A stretch of 64,000 nt of DNA from Escherichia coli (GTDB taxonomy: Bacteria; Pseudomonadota; Gammaproteobacteria; Enterobacterales; Enterobacteriaceae), in assembly GCF_002854065.1 (NCBI RefSeq), contig NZ_CP024147.1; one strand, written 5' to 3'. Within the stretch, counting starts at the first letter, position 1. Every line of letters begins with the position of its first letter. Position numbers and translations under genes: made by a program. This document shows positions 15,768 to 57,454 of this stretch, in pieces. The notes under the pieces were generated by a model that did no database searches, had not been told where the DNA came from, and saw only the letters and a program-made list of their open reading frames with translations.

Positions 15768-16129
15768 AACAACCTCTCTTATAATTATGGGTATTCTACG
15801 GAAACAATATACCGTGGTGAAGCTAATTTACTCGATTGCTGCGATGACTACCTCCGGGGGACAAACCTTATGTAAATACTATGGTCCTGCGGTGATGATT
15901 TGTATGTGATACACAGCAACATTTCGAGATATTCATACGGCATCTAATACTGATTTAATTCTGGTTAAAATACAGACAGATAACAAGATGAATATTCTTA
16001 ATGTTTACGTTAAAAATGTTTAATATTATTTAATAGTTGTTAATTTGAATACTTCGATAATGTTATATTTCCTGATAATCATTTGCAGGCAAAATGTTTT
16101 CACTCTTAAATGAGTATTTATTCTCATAA

Positions 16130-16504
<375 letters not shown>

Positions 16505-47962: not shown

Positions 47963-51575
<3,613 letters not shown>

Positions 51576-51580
51576 TGCTT

Positions 51581-51609
51581 TGCGGGCCGACGAGAAATGT
51601 CGGCCCGCA
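51581..51609. terminator. Bidirectional hairpin terminator between convergent ppx and yfgF
   Basis: tgcgggccgac-gagaaat-gtcggcccgca, 11-bp perfect stem. Confidence 0.75.
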
Positions 51610-51613
51610 TTAT

Positions 51614-53857
51614 TCAGGCACTTTCGCGAATGGGTTCGATTTCATTCAGCGTATCAATTAACGGTTGCGGCTTACCAATAAGATAACCCTGCATATAATC
51701 GATCCCCAAAGAGAGCACTGCCTCGCGGATCTCTTCGTTTTCAACGTACTCTGCCACTACCAGCATTTTCTTCATTCGCGCCAGGTGGCAAATCGATGCC
51801 ACTATCTGATAATCCAGACTATTTGACACAATATTGCGGATAAAACTGCCGTCAATTTTAAGCAGATCGGCATTCACATTTTTAAGCCGCGCATAGCTGG
51901 CGTAGCCGGTGCCGAAATCATCAATCGCAATCTGGCAGCCTAATTCCTGAAGATGCTGCAAGGTGATTTGCGCCTGCTTAACATTGGTCAGAGCATTACT
52001 TTCGGTGACTTCAAAAATAAGTTGCCACGCTTCAATCTGATATTTAGCCAGCAACTGACTGACTTCAACAGGAAAACGAGCCTGACATACCGAGGTTGGA
52101 GACAGATTAATAGCAAAACGGTGAGCGGGCATCTTCGCTCTGTTTTCAGCCATAAATTGCAGCGTATGCTCAATGACCCACATGTCGATACTCGACGATA
52201 AACCAAATTCGTGCGCGACCGGCAAGAAGCTATCGGGGCTGATCAGTTCATCATTCTCACCTTTCATGCGCAGAAGAATTTCATGGTAAACATCACCACG
52301 CATACCTGTAATCGGCTGGGCCATCAGGAAAAAATGGTTGTGTTCCAGCGCCTGCTGTAGTCGATTCATCATCGCGACTTTATCTTTCAATTCGCGTTGC
52401 AAATACATTGCCCCGCGACGCTGCATATTTTCCGGGGCGTTGGTCACGATGGAAAGTTCGGCGACCGTATTTAGCTCTCCCAGCAGCAGGTAGATATGAT
52501 TCACTGGCGAGCGCACATAGCAGTAACTGACGCCAATCTGCGGTTGCATCGGCATGCCATCCCAAAAGAAACGAAATTGCTTGAGATGGCTATCCAGTGC
52601 GGTAATGCGCTCCTGGTGCGATTCTGTATTCAGTCGCAGCGCGAGATCGTTACCCGAAAGCTGATAAACATCTTCACCCGGTTCCAGCAATGGTGACAGC
52701 CAGTGAGAAAGTTTTTGCTTGTATTGAATCCGCAGCATGATGCCATAGTTTTTAACCAGCATTTCCATGCCAGGGATGCGTAAATAACAAAGCGCAGACC
52801 AGGGGGCATCACGCAACGCGCGATTCAGGGCGCGAACATTTGGCAGATGAACCACCGGGTCCACATACGCAAGCCGTTGAATGCGTCTGACTACCGCTCT
52901 CTGACGGGTTGCCAGTACAGCCATATAATTGACAATAAAAGAGAATACCAGATAACTTGAGGAGGTTATGGTCAGCTGCGTGGTATAGCCAGGATAAATG
53001 GGAATGTAATTTTGATAGCTGTGGATGCTGATCATCAACACGACCGCCCAGAGCAGTGAAATCAGCTTATAACCATAGCGCATCGCTCCCCACATCATCA
53101 GGGGCAGCAATAATGACAAGGTATAATTGGTGCTAAAAATTGTGCTTTTTTCATTTAACGGCATGCATAACAGCAACAGTAAAGCACCTAATGCCAGTAG
53201 CCAGAGTGCGAACTCTTTTTTGGTGACTTTGACATCAACCTGCTGTTTTAATTGCGAATAATAACTACGTAAATAAAACGGATTTCGAACTACCCGAATG
53301 ATGAAGTAGCACAGCGGGACACCAATCAGATTGCCCACCAGTAAGGCCTGATAATTGATTAAGGTCCCGAGGTTAAAAGGCATGACGCCGACCAGATTTT
53401 CTCTGCTCGCCAGTAATCCTACAAACGCAGCAAACTGGAAAAGTATCAGAAACAGCGTTGCAGGAAACACAATCTGCCAGAATATACGCTGGGAAATTAA
53501 ACGGGTATCACCATGTGAAACGTTGTTACGCCGGGGAGTAAAGACCCTGTAACCGCCCCAACAGAGAATGATAATGATAATAAAATTAGCCGTTAATGAG
53601 AGCGTTTCGTAAAAACCCAGCTCTGCATATTTGCGGACAAAAATCCCTAAGGCGATCCCTGGCAATGCCGCCCAGCTGAAAAACATCATCATGCTGATCA
53701 TCAGTGCCAAAGGCAGATAAAAGAGAAAAACCTCACCGGAAGAAATATGCGCGAAAGTATTAATGTGGGCGAAAATGGGCAAGATTAAAGAAGGCAGGAA
53801 CAGCGGAAGCCCCCACCATTTATCACGTATTTTTATATAAGTTGCATTCAGTTTCAT
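51614..53857 (-). CDS. pdeF: c-di-GMP phosphodiesterase PdeF (YfgF): MASE1 membrane domain, degenerate GGDEF, EAL
   Basis: 747-aa ORF; N-terminal polytopic membrane region; C-terminal EAL-domain motifs. Confidence 0.92.
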   Translation of the reverse strand: MKLNATYIKIRDKWWGLPLFLPSLILPIFAHINTFAHISSGEVFLFYLPLALMISMMMFFSWAALPGIALGIFVRKYAELGFYETLSLTANFIIIIILCWGGYRVFTPRRNNVSHGDTRLISQRIFWQIVFPATLFLILFQFAAFVGLLASRENLVGVMPFNLGTLINYQALLVGNLIGVPLCYFIIRVVRNPFYLRSYYSQLKQQVDVKVTKKEFALWLLALGALLLLLCMPLNEKSTIFSTNYTLSLLLPLMMWGAMRYGYKLISLLWAVVLMISIHSYQNYIPIYPGYTTQLTITSSSYLVFSFIVNYMAVLATRQRAVVRRIQRLAYVDPVVHLPNVRALNRALRDAPWSALCYLRIPGMEMLVKNYGIMLRIQYKQKLSHWLSPLLEPGEDVYQLSGNDLALRLNTESHQERITALDSHLKQFRFFWDGMPMQPQIGVSYCYVRSPVNHIYLLLGELNTVAELSIVTNAPENMQRRGAMYLQRELKDKVAMMNRLQQALEHNHFFLMAQPITGMRGDVYHEILLRMKGENDELISPDSFLPVAHEFGLSSSIDMWVIEHTLQFMAENRAKMPAHRFAINLSPTSVCQARFPVEVSQLLAKYQIEAWQLIFEVTESNALTNVKQAQITLQHLQELGCQIAIDDFGTGYASYARLKNVNADLLKIDGSFIRNIVSNSLDYQIVASICHLARMKKMLVVAEYVENEEIREAVLSLGIDYMQGYLIGKPQPLIDTLNEIEPIRESA

Positions 53858-54208
53858 AGATGCTCAGCAGAATCCCCCACATCCTGAAGGAGGTGTATTC
53901 AGACAGGCATCCCACCTGACTTCGAATGATGATTATTCATCACTATAGAGAGCATTGATTCTAAGTGTCATATGAAAGTTCCAATTGATATATATCAAAC
54001 AAAATAACCCTGATTAATGAATTATTACGTTTATCATGTTAATTCATCATTATTACATCATCATTGTAAATAATTAAATTAACTTCCATAACATTAAAAT
54101 ATGTATCCACTGACGCTTTTTTACATAACGAAGAATTGACCATTTTGTCCTGTTGTGCCTTAATGTAAGTACCGTCCACAGCGTGGGACATACTTCAAGG
54201 AACCTTTT

Positions 54209-54400
54209 GTGAGTCAGGCAACCAGTATGCGAAAACGACACCGATTTAACAGTCGCATGACCCGTATCGTACTGCTCATCAGCTTTATCTTCTTCTTTGG
54301 CCGTTTTATCTACTCGTCCGTCGGTGCCTGGCAGCACCATCAGAGCAAAAAAGAAGCTCAGCAATCCACACTCTCCGTCGAATCACCGGTACAACGTTAG
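54209..54400 (+). CDS. yfgG: Small membrane protein YfgG
   Basis: 63-aa ORF MSQATSMRKRHRFNSRMTRIVLLISFIFFFGRF...; one hydrophobic segment; position matches K-12. Confidence 0.8.
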   Translation: MSQATSMRKRHRFNSRMTRIVLLISFIFFFGRFIYSSVGAWQHHQSKKEAQQSTLSVESPVQR

Positions 54401-54710
54401 CGGTTACCTTCTCCACTTTCACAGAACATAACGGCACTTCGCTGTCGGATGCTTTTGCTCTTTGGGATTATCAAAGCGGCAGATATTCTTTCATCTTAAA
54501 TTTTACGTCTTTGTCCTGACTGATGTTTATCCTGTTTGGCTGCGAAATAAATATAAAATTAATATATATGTTGTAATGATATATTTTTATAAATTATTCC
54601 CTGCGTGAATTTTAATAAATTTAATCTATCCCTTTATACGCAATACATTTACTTTCCTCTTTTGATGATCTTAAATGTCTTATTTTTCGTAATGTGTATA
54701 ACAAGGAATA

Positions 54711-55229
54711 GTGATGAAATTTAAAAAATGTCTTCTGCCTGTGGCAATGTTAGCGTCATTCACTCTTGCAGGATGCCAGTCAAATGCTGACGATCATGCC
54801 GCCGATGTTTATCAAACCGATCAACTGAATACCAAACAAGAAACTAAAACCGTTAATATTATTTCCATTCTTCCCGCAAAAGTTGCCGTAGACAACTCCC
54901 AAAATAAACGGAACGCACAAGCCTTCGGCGCGCTTATTGGCGCAGTCGCTGGCGGTGTTATCGGCCACAACGTCGGGTCTGGCAGCAATTCCGGAACGAC
55001 GGCAGGTGCAGTTGGCGGCGGAGCTGTAGGCGCGGCAGCGGGTTCTATGGTGAATGATAAAACCTTAGTGGAAGGTGTTTCTTTAACGTATAAGGAAGGC
55101 ACCAAAGTGTATACCTCTACTCAGGTGGGTAAAGAGTGCCAGTTTACGACAGGTTTAGCCGTTGTTATTACCACGACGTATAACGAAACGCGTATTCAGC
55201 CAAATACCAAATGTCCTGAAAAGAGCTAA
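54711..55229 (+). CDS. yfgH: Outer-membrane lipoprotein YfgH (glycine-zipper type)
   Basis: 172-aa ORF with lipobox LAGC and Gly-rich GxxxG zipper region (GALIGAVAGGVIGHNVGSG). Confidence 0.85.
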   Translation: MMKFKKCLLPVAMLASFTLAGCQSNADDHAADVYQTDQLNTKQETKTVNIISILPAKVAVDNSQNKRNAQAFGALIGAVAGGVIGHNVGSGSNSGTTAGAVGGGAVGAAAGSMVNDKTLVEGVSLTYKEGTKVYTSTQVGKECQFTTGLAVVITTTYNETRIQPNTKCPEKS

Positions 55230-55244
55230 TAATCAGGAGGAGTC

Positions 55245-55784
55245 ATGAAGAAAGTTTTTCTTTGCGCCATCTTAGCCTCCTTAAGCTATCCGGCTATCGC
55301 CTCATCATTGCAGGATCAACTCTCTGCTGTCGCAGAAGCGGAACAGCAAGGTAAAAATGAAGAGCAAAGGCAGCATGACGAATGGGTCGCGGAGCGCAAC
55401 AGGGAAATCCAGCAAGAGAAGCAACGTCGCGCAAATGCCCAGGCCGCCGCTAACAAAAGAGCGGCAACGGCAGCGGCAAATAAGAAAGCTCGTCAGGATA
55501 AACTGGACGCCGAAGCCACTGCGGACAAAAAACGCGATCAAAGTTATGAAGATGAGCTACGCAGCTTAGAGATTCAGAAACAAAAACTGGCGCTGGCAAA
55601 AGAAGAAGCCCGCGTTAAGCGAGAAAACGAATTTATCGATCAGGAACTGAAGCACAAAGCTGCGCAAACCGATGTGGTGCAATCTGAAGCTGACGCCAAC
55701 AGAAATATGACTGAAGGCGGTCGCGATCTGATGAAAAGCGTGGGCAAAGCAGAAGAGAACAAATCGGACAGCTGGTTTAATTAA
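55245..55784 (+). CDS. yfgI: Secreted coiled-coil protein YfgI
   Basis: 179-aa ORF with signal peptide MKKVFLCAILASLSYPAIA and charged Ala/Lys/Glu-rich low-complexity region. Confidence 0.85.
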   Translation: MKKVFLCAILASLSYPAIASSLQDQLSAVAEAEQQGKNEEQRQHDEWVAERNREIQQEKQRRANAQAAANKRAATAAANKKARQDKLDAEATADKKRDQSYEDELRSLEIQKQKLALAKEEARVKRENEFIDQELKHKAAQTDVVQSEADANRNMTEGGRDLMKSVGKAEENKSDSWFN

Positions 55785-55822
55785 TCGATGTTACTAACTT
55801 CAATCCTATGATTCGTGAGTAT

Positions 55823-55854
55823 AAAAAACCCTCTGTAGTAACAGAGGGTTTTGT
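55823..55854. terminator. Bidirectional terminator between convergent yfgI and guaA
   Basis: aaaaaccctctg-tagtaa-cagagggtttt hairpin flanked by A and T runs. Confidence 0.8.
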
Positions 55855-55876
55855 TCATTCATAGTGCAGGGTCAAA

Positions 55877-57454
55877 TCATTCCCACTCAATGGTAGCTGG
55901 CGGCTTGCCGCTGATGTCATACACCACGCGGGAAATACCGTTCACTTCATTGATAATGCGGTTGGAAACGCGACCGAGGAAATCGTACGGCAGGTGCGCC
56001 CAGTGTGCGGTCATGAAGTCGATGGTTTCGACAGCACGCAGAGAGACAACCCAGTCGTATTTACGACCATCGCCCATTACGCCAACAGAACGTACCGGCA
56101 GGAAGACAGTGAACGCCTGGCTGACTTTGTCGTACAGATCCGCTTTACGCAGCTCTTCAATGAAGATGGCATCAGCACGGCGCAGCAGGTCACAGTACTC
56201 TTTCTTCACTTCGCCCAGTACACGAACGCCGAGGCCCGGTCCCGGGAACGGGTGACGGTAGAGCATGTCGTACGGCAGGCCCAGCTCCAGACCAATCTTA
56301 CGCACTTCGTCTTTGAACAGCTCTTTCAGCGGTTCAACCAGGCCCATCTTCATCTCTTTCGGCAGGCCGCCCACGTTGTGGTGAGATTTGATGACGTGTG
56401 CTTTACCGGTTGCAGACGCCGCAGATTCGATAACGTCAGGGTAGATGGTGCCCTGTGCCAGCCACTTCACGTCTTCCAGTTTCAGCGCTTCTTCATCGAA
56501 TACTTCAACGAAAACGCGACCGATGATTTTACGTTTTGCTTCCGGATCGTTTTCGCCAGCCAGCGCTGACAGGAAGCGATCTTCTGCCGGAACGTGAACA
56601 ATGTTCAGACCAAAGTGATCGCCAAACATATCCAGAACCTGCTCTGCTTCGTTGAGACGCAGCAGGCCGTTGTCGACGAATACGCAAGTCAGGTTTTTAC
56701 CGATAGCGCGGTGCAGCAGCATTGCGGTTACGGAGGAATCCACACCACCAGAGAGGCCGAGGATAACTTTATCGTCGCCTACCTGCTCGCGGATGCGAGC
56801 TACAGCATCGTCGATAATTTTCGCTGGCGTCCACAGGGCTTCACACTGGCAGATATCACGCACAAAACGCTCCAGCATGCGCATACCCTGGCGGGTGTGA
56901 GTCACTTCCGGGTGGAACTGTACGCCATAGAAGCGTTTTTCTTCGTTAGCCATAATGGCAAACGGGCAGCTTTCGGTGCTGGCTACGGTGATGAAGTCGG
57001 ACGGGATAGCGGTAACTTTATCGCCGTGGCTCATCCAGACATCGAGCAGCGGTTTACCGTCTGCGGTCAGCGCATCTTCGATACCGCGAACCAGTGCGCT
57101 GTCGTTTACGACTTCAACCTGCGCGTAGCCAAATTCACGTTCGTTAGAGGCTTCAACGTGACCGCCCAACTGCATTGCCATGGTCTGCATGCCATAGCAA
57201 ACGCCGAATACCGGTACGCCTGCTTCAAAGACATACTGCGGCGCACGCGGGCTGTTTTCTTCAGTAGTACTTTCCGGGCCGCCGGAAAGAATAATGCCGC
57301 TTGGATTGAAGTCACGAATTTGTGCTTCTGTCACATCCCACGCCCACAGTTCGCAGTAAACACCCAGCTCACGCACGCGGCGCGCAACCAGTTGAGTGTA
57401 CTGAGAACCGAAGTCCAGAATGAGGATGCGATGCTTATGAATGTTTTCCGTCAT
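55877..57454 (-). CDS. guaA: GMP synthase (glutamine-hydrolysing)
   Basis: 525-aa [36 protein letters not shown]... Confidence 0.96.

Follow-up and report, generated by a model that had tools for sequence, protein, structure and literature searches.

SlyB is a PhoPQ-regulated outer-membrane lipoprotein with cryo-EM structures (7OJF, 7OJG), and its Escherichia coli paralogue YfgH was the subject of a detailed 2025 preprint. That work placed YfgH in the outer-membrane fraction, reported that it keeps the outer membrane stable under stress and, using AlphaFold3, predicted a SlyB-like ring of 11 subunits; it dealt with YfgH alone and mentioned YfgI 0 times. Expression of YfgH is reported to be almost nil in LB and to rise under outer-membrane stress: it is cited at ~7 copies per cell in LB, and yfgH is induced by LpxC, LptD or BamA knock-down. 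YfgG is required for Ni/Co tolerance (PMC6338753), and a yfgI mutant is sensitive to nalidixic acid (PMC3536626). An earlier note on this DNA had described yfgG, yfgH and yfgI as an old, horizontally acquired, H-NS-silenced module of unknown function; with a metal-tolerance protein, an outer-membrane stabiliser and a drug-sensitive mutant on record, "unknown function" is outdated. Higashi 2016 (PMC4720273) treats genes bound by H-NS within segments shared among E. coli strains as ancient horizontal acquisitions; yfgH, in the unit yfgHI, is H-NS-bound there by ChAP-seq and is marked 'L/N' in the horizontally-transferred-gene column, which we interpret as a prediction of transfer by the methods of Lawrence–Ochman and Nakamura.

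We analysed a window of 64,000 nucleotides (64 kb) of the E. coli chromosome, in which pdeF–yfgG–yfgH–yfgI–guaA is a well-known region (Table 1). Our analysis indicates that the AT-rich block at 53858–55784 is probably composite, with a pdeF–spacer 1–yfgG backbone and a yfgHI islet lying under one H-NS tract and YfgI as the putative partner of YfgH. The earlier finding was largely correct, and the locus is ordinary and mostly known from the literature.

Table 1. Features of the pdeF–guaA region (positions in the window; a dot marks features given without a strand)
Feature	Position	Strand	Basis
pdeF (yfgF), MASE1-EAL c-di-GMP phosphodiesterase	51614..53857	-	Pfam MASE1 and EAL; annotation
AT-rich spacer 1, ancestral divergent control region of pdeF and yfgG	53858..54208	.	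34.2% GC
pdeF promoter, ATGACA-18-TATAGT	53942..53971	-	Consensus scan, 10/12 matches
FNR box TTGATATATATCAA	53985..53998	.	Found in sequence; Myers 2013 predicted site
50-aa ORF, PGAP 'hypothetical protein'	54039..54191	-	Annotated in strain 100416, not in K-12; 31.4% GC
yfgG promoter, TTGACC-17-CTTAAT	54136..54164	+	Shimada 2014 hexamers placed in sequence; transcription start near 54171
yfgG, 63-aa single-pass membrane peptide, DUF2633	54209..54400	+	Pfam PF11119
AT-rich spacer 2, islet left junction and yfgHI leader	54401..54710	+	31.0% GC
yfgHI islet, cargo of the variable slot between yfgG and guaA	54407..55822	+	43.9% GC; homology breakpoints
Candidate yfgHI core promoter, TTTACT-17-TTAAAT	54648..54676	+	8/12 matches, weak; conservation
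yfgH, outer-membrane lipoprotein, SlyB paralogue, Gly-zipper 2TM	54714..55229 (annotated 54711)	+	PF05433; SlyB match; lipobox LAGC
yfgI, secreted DUF5384 protein	55245..55784	+	Signal peptide AIA/S; PF17358
Bidirectional intrinsic terminator, common to yfgI and guaA	55823..55855	.	Hairpin CCCTCTGT-AGTA-ACAGAGGG, flanking A and T runs

Base composition of the block

The region from 53700 to 55900 was 100% identical to strain 100416 and was matched in 5425 of 5426 complete E. coli genomes. Alignment of 53858–55784 with K-12 MG1655 was colinear and gap-free, with 9 substitutions. GC content was 34.2% in spacer 1 and 31.0% in spacer 2 compared with 52.1% for the window and 42.6% for the remaining intergenic DNA (pooled), while the complete block reached 42.9%. 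When 200-nt windows were ranked across the 64 kb, the lowest (22.5%) and third lowest (24.0%) fell in the two spacers; the AT run quoted in the earlier note, attattacatcatcattgtaaataattaaattaa, corresponds to 54049–54082. Analysis of 1.5-kb windows (mean 52.1%, sd 3.0) revealed a minimum at 53414–54913 with 38.9% GC, far below the next value of 44.9%. The sliding-window calculation thus confirmed that both spacers are strongly AT-rich and that the surrounding 1.5 kb is the most AT-rich stretch of the window. At short scale the ypfM–yffB spacer was equally AT-rich (31.1% GC overall, 23% in 200 nt), and the short uraA–upp spacer had 30.6% GC.

The intergenic stretches had also been said to be unlike the flanking core genes. 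This held clearly for the spacers, whereas coding GC was only mildly low (yfgG 49.5%, yfgH 47.0%, yfgI 49.1%; yfgH and yfgI 3–5 points under the window mean) and the codon-usage scores of yfgH and yfgI lay at the low end but were not outliers, similar to hyfI and tmcA. The GC3 of yfgH (0.42) was the lowest among the real genes of the window. The description of the three products as small envelope proteins was accurate: they are a 63-aa membrane peptide, a Gly-zipper lipoprotein and a secreted helical protein.

The pdeF–yfgG backbone and the H-NS tract

pdeF (46.3% GC) was kept at the same position in Salmonella, Klebsiella, Citrobacter and Pseudocitrobacter, and DNA homology with Salmonella, Klebsiella and Citrobacter continued through spacer 1. 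pdeF is a backbone gene with its 5' part inside the H-NS tract. Spacer 1, the yfgF/yfgG spacer, contains published genomic SELEX sites for RpoD holoenzyme and H-NS together with published FNR and sigma-S ChIP peaks. The hexamers of the pdeF promoter were identical to those given for yfgF in Shimada 2014, and Myers 2013 reports a predicted FNR site and a ChIP peak at yfgF/yfgG (Tables S5 and S6). Occupancy of yfgF/yfgG by FNR increased from 0.35 to 1.68 in a Δhns ΔstpA strain (Myers 2013, Table S7), the only background in which anaerobic induction of pdeF was seen; the published explanation is that the H-NS tract restricts access of FNR to the pdeF promoter. The 50-aa ORF in spacer 1 is most likely not a gene, with synonymous to nonsynonymous ratios of 1:5, 1:10 and 4:22, compared with 8:1 and 9:1 for yfgG, and with stop codons in Salmonella and Citrobacter.

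The ratios obtained for yfgG reveal purifying selection, and yfgG is a conserved backbone gene outside the islet. Its product matched PF11119 (DUF2633) with 97.6 bits (cut-off 25), and homologues of the family were identified in Escherichia, Citrobacter, Salmonella, Kluyvera, Klebsiella, Enterobacter, Leclercia and Atlantibacter. Published K-12 data place a yfgG start site at 2627275 and a sigma-70 ChIP-seq peak of 11,933 at 2627279, both of which mapped to about 54171–54175 in the window; peaks inside yfgHI, by comparison, were 178 and 138. yfgG is actively transcribed though it lies inside the H-NS tract. No convincing terminator was identified after yfgG, where the folding energy was similar to that of shuffled sequence (z = 0.36), so some read-through from yfgG into yfgHI is possible.

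H-NS ChIP-chip regions lie over the block in K-12 (Myers 2013, Table S3). Mapped to the window, these regions covered about 53170–55305 (anaerobic) and 51295–55860 (aerobic), a tract of 2.1–4.6 kb from the 5' end of pdeF through yfgH or yfgI; the ChIP data are from K-12, with which the region aligns without gaps at 98.9% identity. The H-NS occupancy expected from composition was therefore borne out over the whole block. Silencing is likely for part of it: the block is bound in vivo and yfgH has low basal expression, whereas yfgG has a strong sigma-70 peak at its own promoter and is not silenced. H-NS binding together with low basal expression suggests that yfgHI is silenced; a search of the accessible literature found no report of yfgH or yfgI de-repression in an hns mutant. 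The 10-mer TCGATAAATT is said to have been described by Lang et al. in 2007 as a high-affinity H-NS site. Allowing up to 2 mismatches, it gave 70 matches compared with 59 ± 8 expected, which is no enrichment. The sole exact match in the window falls within yfgI, and the motif was given no weight as evidence.

Borders, distribution and gene pairing of the yfgHI islet

Backbone DNA homology with Salmonella and Klebsiella ended at about 54406 and restarted at 55823. The terminator between yfgI and guaA was stable on both strands (-21.2 kcal/mol, z = -6.8, on the plus strand; -17.9 kcal/mol, z = -5.2, on the minus strand) and belongs to the backbone, since the Salmonella and Klebsiella homology restarts there. 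The slot between yfgG and guaA was filled by other genes in S. Infantis, K. pneumoniae and K. aerogenes, and some Escherichia carried extra cargo or a prophage. Among its contents in enterobacteria were acyltransferases, a toxin–antitoxin gene and immunity-like genes; one strain had a prophage there. The slot is a small hot spot for enterobacterial accessory genes. A search for mobility scars identified only short chance repeats in 53800–55950 and no integrase or tRNA among the neighbours; scar-free borders fit an ancient insertion.

Within spacer 2, positions 54407–54640 were unalignable outside the E. coli clade, even with E. albertii. An Rfam scan of 53500–56000 with E up to 1 gave a single chance match to a human lncRNA family (E = 0.8). 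The promoter scan gave no plus-strand promoter in spacer 2 at the scan threshold, and promoter-like matches numbered 5 compared with 4.5 expected from shuffled sequence. Because the scan was at shuffle level, the yfgHI promoter is proposed from conservation: the candidate scores under the scan threshold, and its hexamers, in contrast to the remainder of spacer 2, were conserved 5' of chromosomal yfgH in Escherichia, Pseudocitrobacter, Citrobacter and Kluyvera.

Translation of yfgH probably starts at the ATG at 54714 rather than at the annotated GTG at 54711, because the ATG and an AAGGA ribosome-binding site are conserved and the GTG is not. The protein has a lipoprotein signal peptide with a lipobox cysteine (MKFKKCLLPVAMLASFTLAG|C) and Gln at position +2, as read from the translation, and matched PF05433 with 33.2 bits (cut-off 24.2). 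YfgI matched PF17358 (DUF5384) over residues 33–178 with 209 bits (cut-off 25). The earlier note called it a coiled-coil secreted protein; "coiled-coil" is a prediction, with AlphaFold2 modelling a single unbroken helix from residue 18 to residue 178 (mean pLDDT 85.5). No solved structure related to YfgI was found.

DUF5384 relatives were identified at 26 loci when one genome for each of 100,044 species was searched, and the family had 292 representatives among 1.84 billion proteins. A yfgI homologue directly followed a yfgH homologue at all 26 genome loci, in 4 of 4 distant members and at all plasmid and phage loci inspected. Because the homologues are adjacent at every place examined, this pattern suggests that YfgI is a partner of YfgH. 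The adjacency, including that on phage-plasmids and Col plasmids, may be a new addition, and its invariability is the useful biological lead from this locus. YfgI carries the odd label 'nalidixic acid resistance protein', which a role as partner of YfgH could explain.

The distribution of the pair was patchy. yfgHI was retained in the slot in Escherichia, some Citrobacter, Pseudocitrobacter and S. bongori, the last with the same gene order and yfgHI at the same position, and one S. enterica genome contained a deletion remnant of the pair. The cassette was in the slot before the Escherichia–Salmonella split. Outside the slot, the pair was found in Kluyvera, Xenorhabdus, Dryocola and a Pantoea. 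It is also carried by IncY/P1-like plasmids, phage P7 (upf50.5 and upf50.0) and 7.5-kb ColRNAI plasmids, and these plasmid and phage copies comprised yfgH and yfgI homologues only. One distant pair adjoins a phage integrase gene, and a second copy elsewhere is also beside an integrase. On the small, mobilisable Col plasmids the pair adjoins an unclassified phosphoethanolamine-transferase-like gene; its assignment to MCR was rejected, with scores far under every family cut-off. Between E. coli and E. albertii, identity was 85% for the pair and 98% for the flanks. Copies of YfgI in the slot roughly tracked the species tree, so the original transfer may have gone in either direction between chromosome and mobile element.

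Co-occurrence of the three genes failed in both directions: yfgG was present and yfgHI absent in S. Infantis and Klebsiella (K. pneumoniae, K. aerogenes), and plasmids, phages, Kluyvera and Xenorhabdus carried yfgHI apart from yfgG. A single yfgG–yfgH–yfgI module is thus contradicted. Horizontal acquisition of the set stands for yfgHI, which is old, patchy and mobile, but not for yfgG and spacer 1, which are conserved backbone; likewise, yfgHI is not universal in Enterobacteriaceae, whereas yfgG is widespread across the family.

Competing explanations and comparison with known systems

In the composite arrangement that we favour, spacer 1 serves as a divergent control region of the backbone, with a sigma-70 promoter and FNR box for pdeF and a polymerase-occupied yfgG promoter under the sigma-S peak. 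The yfgHI islet is an old two-gene cassette for outer-membrane protection, since kept, decayed, or absent with other genes in the slot. Both AT-rich spacers may nucleate an H-NS filament, which would hold the weak yfgHI promoter almost off until outer-membrane damage, as published, switches yfgH on. YfgI would then be an obligate partner of YfgH, as its invariable adjacency suggests, and a leakier outer membrane, not a defect in DNA repair, would underlie the sensitivity of yfgI mutants to nalidixic acid.

Joint import of yfgG, yfgH and yfgI as one AT-rich module silenced by H-NS as a unit would account for three co-oriented envelope genes under a single H-NS tract, with no intrinsic terminator between yfgG and yfgH. 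It is very unlikely and already largely refuted by distribution: where yfgHI is missing from Salmonella and Klebsiella genomes, yfgG and spacer 1 are still conserved beside pdeF; YfgG occurs broadly in Enterobacteriaceae, compared with only 26 loci found for YfgI; and the plasmid and phage copies hold the yfgH and yfgI homologues only. In addition, yfgG has its own strongly occupied promoter, and the phenotypes differ, with Ni/Co tolerance for yfgG and outer-membrane integrity for yfgH. Also very unlikely is an unannotated element in spacer 2 (a small RNA, small protein or mobile-element remnant) that would explain its composition in place of yfgHI regulation. At 310 nt the spacer is unusually long and AT-rich for a co-oriented gene pair, and it contains ORFs of 48 aa (54462–54608) and 39 aa (54605–54724) and several promoter-like sites on the minus strand; however, those sites are at the number expected by chance, no Rfam match fell below E = 0.8, no repeats were found, and the failure of 54407–54640 to align even with E. 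albertii indicates no conserved element there.

A stronger, though still unlikely, competitor is that nothing was imported, so that these are ancestral Enterobacteriaceae genes with ordinary AT-rich promoters that draw H-NS, and chromosomes were the source of the copies on plasmids and phages. The conservation of spacer 1 across genera, the tracking of the species tree by YfgI slot copies, the lack of mobility scars and the presence of the locus in nearly every E. coli genome (5425/5426) all agree with this, as do the core spacers ypfM–yffB and upp–purM, which are just as rich in AT or are likewise marked for H-NS by SELEX; of the divergent spacers that contain RpoD sites, 36% have H-NS sites too. 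Against it, no other stretch of the window reaches so low a GC at kilobase scale, GC3 is lower in yfgH than in any other real gene, and comparison of E. coli with E. albertii shows the pair changing much more quickly than its flanks. Alternative locations of the pair in Kluyvera, Xenorhabdus, Dryocola and a Pantoea, the distant pair beside a phage integrase, the other slot genes in Klebsiella and S. Infantis and the extra cargo or prophage in some Escherichia also argue against purely ancestral genes, and the 'L/N' mark on yfgH in Higashi 2016 points the same way. Taken together, these results favour a composite block. Composition alone pointed to a tract that is coated with H-NS in published ChIP data. 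Such reasoning also has a limit, seen here: conserved regulatory DNA of the backbone and a genuine ancient islet occur together in the AT-rich block.

Comparison with SlyB revealed a shared lipobox, a shared Gly-zipper 2TM and a full-length alignment (7OJF, E = 4e-10, YfgH residues 8–163). In contrast to SlyB, YfgH has very low basal expression, and it always occurs with a DUF5384 partner gene, a comparison made on the YfgH side only. According to the 2025 preprint the two proteins do not cross-complement, and suppressors map to clsA for yfgH and to the Mla pathway for slyB.

TraT, a plasmid surface-exclusion and serum-resistance lipoprotein, resembles YfgH as a small, oligomeric outer-membrane protein found on mobile elements. 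Residues 56–161 of YfgH scored 28.1 bits against TraT PF05818, below the cut-off of 31, and matches to PDB TraT chains had E = 0.013–0.14 (9FS5 at E = 0.013). Membership of the TraT family was rejected, the score being under the Pfam threshold and the SlyB match far better. We know of no exclusion phenotype for YfgH.

Braun's lipoprotein (Lpp) is a periplasmic helical spacer. YfgI may be likened to it as a predicted secreted, purely helical rod, and 160 residues at 1.5 Å would give ~24 nm, on the scale of the periplasm width; in contrast to Lpp, YfgI has no lipobox, and no sequence similarity to Lpp was found. We tentatively propose that YfgH and YfgI could form an obligate mobile two-protein outer-membrane module, a SlyB-like ring with a ~24 nm periplasmic rod, that acts as a transferable envelope-hardening or exclusion trait. 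If true, yfgHI would be a transferable trait and not an E. coli housekeeping oddity.

The P7 pair upf50.5/upf50.0 and the IncY/P1-like copies have gene order and spacing identical to yfgHI, with products 65–69% (YfgH-like) and 47–50% (YfgI-like) identical to those of E. coli. Their location is different: instead of adjoining guaA, they lie with the c4–icd–ant immunity region on one side and the late tail operon on the other. In the tree they branch deeply and separately, close to the Xenorhabdus copies. The P7 annotators had already recorded similarity to E. coli proteins. As in the genes described by Higashi 2016, yfgH combines low GC, a patchy distribution and protein divergence faster than that of the flanks; unlike in that class, the tract here also spans the non-imported backbone of pdeF, spacer 1 and yfgG.

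The AT-rich tract and its genes

The DNA spanning 53700-55900 is 100% identical to E. coli strain 100416 and is present in 5425 of 5426 complete E. coli genomes; relative to the AT-rich block (53858-55784), K-12 MG1655 is colinear and without gaps, with nine substitutions. Sliding-window analysis bore out the strong AT-richness reported in the earlier note, with a GC content of 34.2% in spacer 1 (between pdeF and yfgG) and 31.0% in spacer 2 (between yfgG and yfgH), compared with 52.1% for the window and 42.6% for its remaining intergenic DNA. In 200-nt windows the two spacers had the lowest and third-lowest GC of the whole window, and among 1.5-kb windows 53414-54913 (38.9% GC) was the minimum by more than 4 standard deviations. 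The divergent 380-nt ypfM-yffB spacer (15768-16147; 31.1% GC, 23% in its lowest 200 nt) is equally AT-rich at short scale, so the distinctive signal is the kilobase-scale one. Coding GC of the three genes is just mildly low (yfgH has the lowest GC3 among real genes in the window, 0.42), and their codon-usage scores lie at the low end without being outliers.

The prediction of three small envelope proteins also held. YfgG has a basic N-terminus followed by a single hydrophobic span, YfgH carries the lipobox LAGC and YfgI a signal peptide with the signal-peptidase I site AIA/S.

Features of the yfgGHI locus
Feature	Position	Strand	Remark
ppx	50034-51575	+	gene order
pdeF (yfgF)	51614-53857	-	gene order
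Spacer 1	53858-54208		pdeF-yfgG
pdeF promoter ATGACA-18-TATAGT	53971-53942	-	spacer 1
FNR box TTGATATATATCAA	53985-53998		spacer 1
AT run quoted in the earlier note	54049-54082		
yfgG promoter TTGACC-17-CTTAAT	54136-54164	+	spacer 1
yfgG	54209-54400	+	Pfam DUF2633
Spacer 2	54401-54710		yfgG-yfgH
Candidate yfgHI promoter TTTACT-17-TTAAAT	54648-54676		weak; conserved end of spacer 2
yfgH	54711-55229	+	Pfam glycine-zipper 2TM domain
yfgI	55245-55784	+	Pfam DUF5384
guaA	55877-57454	-	gene order

A 50-aa ORF in spacer 1 (54039-54191, minus strand), called a 'hypothetical protein' by PGAP (WP_000017552.1), is probably spurious: its substitutions are almost all non-synonymous, showing no purifying selection, stop codons interrupt it in Salmonella and Citrobacter, it overlaps the yfgG promoter, and K-12 lacks the annotation. 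Spacer 2 gave no Rfam match, and no convincing terminator was found 3' of yfgG. Positions 54407-54640 could not be aligned even with E. albertii; the final ~70 nt are conserved. The ribosome-binding site AAGGA (54703-54707) and the ATG at 54714 of yfgH are invariant across the genera compared; the annotated GTG start at 54711 is GTA or GTT in other genera, and the real length of YfgH is probably 171 aa, not 172 aa.

Elsewhere in the window, 60596-61720 matches, at 100% identity, a segment of an 'adhesion domain-containing protein' gene that IS1 interrupts in reference strain 100416. Past xseA, S. bongori carries a large BIg21/InvE_AD gene.

Backbone and islet

S. Infantis, K. pneumoniae and K. 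aerogenes share DNA homology with the window across pdeF, spacer 1 and yfgG as far as about 54406, and again from 55823, at a bidirectional terminator ahead of guaA. YfgG homologues occur in Escherichia, Citrobacter, Salmonella, Kluyvera, Klebsiella, Enterobacter, Leclercia and Atlantibacter, and yfgG is under purifying selection. Thus pdeF, spacer 1 and yfgG are backbone, and 54407-55822 (spacer 2, yfgH and yfgI) is the islet. The three genes had been proposed to form a single module; the cross-genus comparison instead splits the block, with yfgG and spacer 1 shared with genomes that lack yfgHI in the yfgG-guaA interval (the slot). In S. Infantis the slot holds a DUF1493 gene. Both Klebsiella genomes have a LysR regulator and an MFS transporter there, together with an anaerobic sulfatase maturase in K. 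pneumoniae and an antitoxin gene in K. aerogenes.

The yfgI-guaA junction (55785-55876) is itself an insertion site. In the phage TL-2011b record (E. coli O103:H25), phage lysis genes directly abut yfgI, followed by yfgH, yfgG and pdeF. Other occupants of the junction are a SUKH-1 immunity-like gene in E. whittamii and, in Escherichia sp. E1V33, a 4.8-kb stretch containing two acyltransferase-3 genes.

Distribution and mobility of the yfgHI pair

YfgI relatives are rare: a pattern scan covering 100,044 species, each represented by one genome, yielded just 26 loci, and a profile search against 1.84 billion protein representatives yielded 292. A YfgH homologue lay directly upstream on the same strand at all 26 loci, and the upstream protein was 44-56% identical to YfgH in the four distant metagenomic members looked up. 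The pair occupies the slot in Escherichia species, Pseudocitrobacter, some Citrobacter and S. bongori, and one S. enterica genome retains an internally deleted remnant; a published study reports orthologues in S. Typhi, where they are SdiA-regulated (srgIL), and none in Typhimurium. Outside the slot it occurs in Kluyvera, six Xenorhabdus species, Dryocola and a Pantoea, and in ~200 plasmid records. Carriers include IncY/P1-like phage-plasmids, phage P7 (as upf50.5 and upf50.0, between the c4-icd-ant immunity region and the late tail operon), 4-kb Salmonella plasmids and 7.5-kb mobilisable ColRNAI plasmids. In the last of these, a 513-aa phosphoethanolamine-transferase-like gene (L006 3593-5134; L007 1965-3506) sits immediately upstream of the pair. 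It fits no named family, its best matches (CptA, EptA and MCR models) being far under cut-offs; the three genes look like a small envelope-modifying cargo.

In a neighbour-joining tree, slot copies formed one group roughly tracking species, and Col-plasmid and P1-like copies formed separate deep groups. No integrase, tRNA or flanking repeat was found at the E. coli islet borders. A second, diverged pair in Escherichia sp. E1V33 (L025 9701-11228), with a truncated YfgH-like gene, adjoins a partial phage-integrase gene and a FliF gene, and in GCA_014349205.1 the genes flanking a distant pair encode a phage integrase and a protein with SNIPE/T5orf172 nuclease domains. We conclude that the yfgHI cassette has been in the slot since before the Escherichia-Salmonella split and belongs to a small mobile family, whose first transfer may have run in either direction between chromosome and mobile element. 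The proposal of old, horizontally acquired DNA stands for yfgHI but not for yfgG and spacer 1, which are backbone.

In two RefSeq phage records the YfgH homologue is labelled 'DNA methyltransferase' (P7 upf50.5, L009 4476-4997; TL-2011b F365_gp55, L008 2355-2870). The product is clearly a SlyB/YfgH-family lipoprotein, so the label is an annotation error, which could propagate. Among E. coli strains, the Ala-rich segment AQAAANKRAATAAANKKARQ of YfgI (codons 65-84, 55437-55496) varies by in-frame loss of 2-9 residues, so that protein length ranges from 170 to 179 aa; slippage between short repeats looks like the cause, with the predicted helix shortened as a result.

H-NS occupancy and protein function

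K-12 coordinates map exactly onto the window: the region has no indels, and both the FNR box and the yfgG start of transcription served to check the offset. TCGATAAATT, the high-affinity H-NS 10-mer of Lang et al. 2007, has its sole exact copy in the 64 kb at 55630-55639 (minus strand), inside yfgI, and a one-mismatch copy at 55779-55788; looser matches were not enriched in the 64-kb window. In K-12, H-NS ChIP-chip covers 2626274-2628408 (~53170-55305) anaerobically and 2624400-2628963 (~51295-55860) aerobically (Myers et al. 2013, Table S3). ChAP-seq lists yfgH (unit yfgHI) as H-NS-bound, with 'L/N' in the horizontally-transferred-gene column (Higashi et al. 2016, PMC4720273), and SELEX places an in vitro RNA-polymerase site and an H-NS site in the yfgF/yfgG spacer (Shimada et al. 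2014). The core ypfM-yffB and upp-purM spacers of the window bear the same mark in that study, and ypfM-yffB is a local control: AT-richness and H-NS binding in a short spacer do not by themselves make it foreign DNA.

FNR occupancy at spacer 1 rises from 0.35 to 1.68, and pdeF is induced anaerobically, only in a delta-hns delta-stpA strain. At the yfgG promoter, inside the tract, the sigma-70 ChIP-seq peak is strong (11,933) and there is a sigma-S peak as well, so H-NS binding is not equal to silence. Listed sigma-70 peaks within yfgHI are only 178 and 138; YfgH is cited at ~7 copies per cell in LB and is heavily induced on depletion of LpxC, LptD or BamA (YfgH preprint). The suggested H-NS silencing thus fails at yfgG, although the tract is H-NS-bound; we infer it for yfgHI.

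IS5 targets the pdeF-yfgI locus. In a gallium-evolved K-12 line its insertion maps to 53961 in spacer 1 (site CTAA, 53961-53964; PMC6928379). Strain W444 carries IS5 with a deletion from within pdeF to within yfgI. Insertion of IS5 into H-NS-bound promoter regions is known at other loci.

The module had been assigned no function, a view that published phenotypes overturn. YfgG is necessary and sufficient for Ni/Co tolerance (PMC6338753). YfgH is a full-length SlyB paralogue whose loss causes SDS/EDTA and vancomycin sensitivity and worsens LptD defects. Deletion of yfgI leaves 7% survival on nalidixic acid (PMC3536626); since YfgI is secreted, a leakier envelope would be a simpler account than a DNA-repair defect. 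YfgI is predicted to form a single helix of ~160 residues after its signal peptide, and no solved relative was found. The invariable adjacency argues that YfgH and YfgI may act together; a detailed YfgH study does not mention yfgI.

Taken together, the AT-rich feature is real and its earlier interpretation half right. The K-12 literature already covers nearly everything on the locus, and the analysis adds modestly to it: the backbone/islet split, the variable yfgG-guaA slot and the obligate, mobile YfgH-YfgI pairing.
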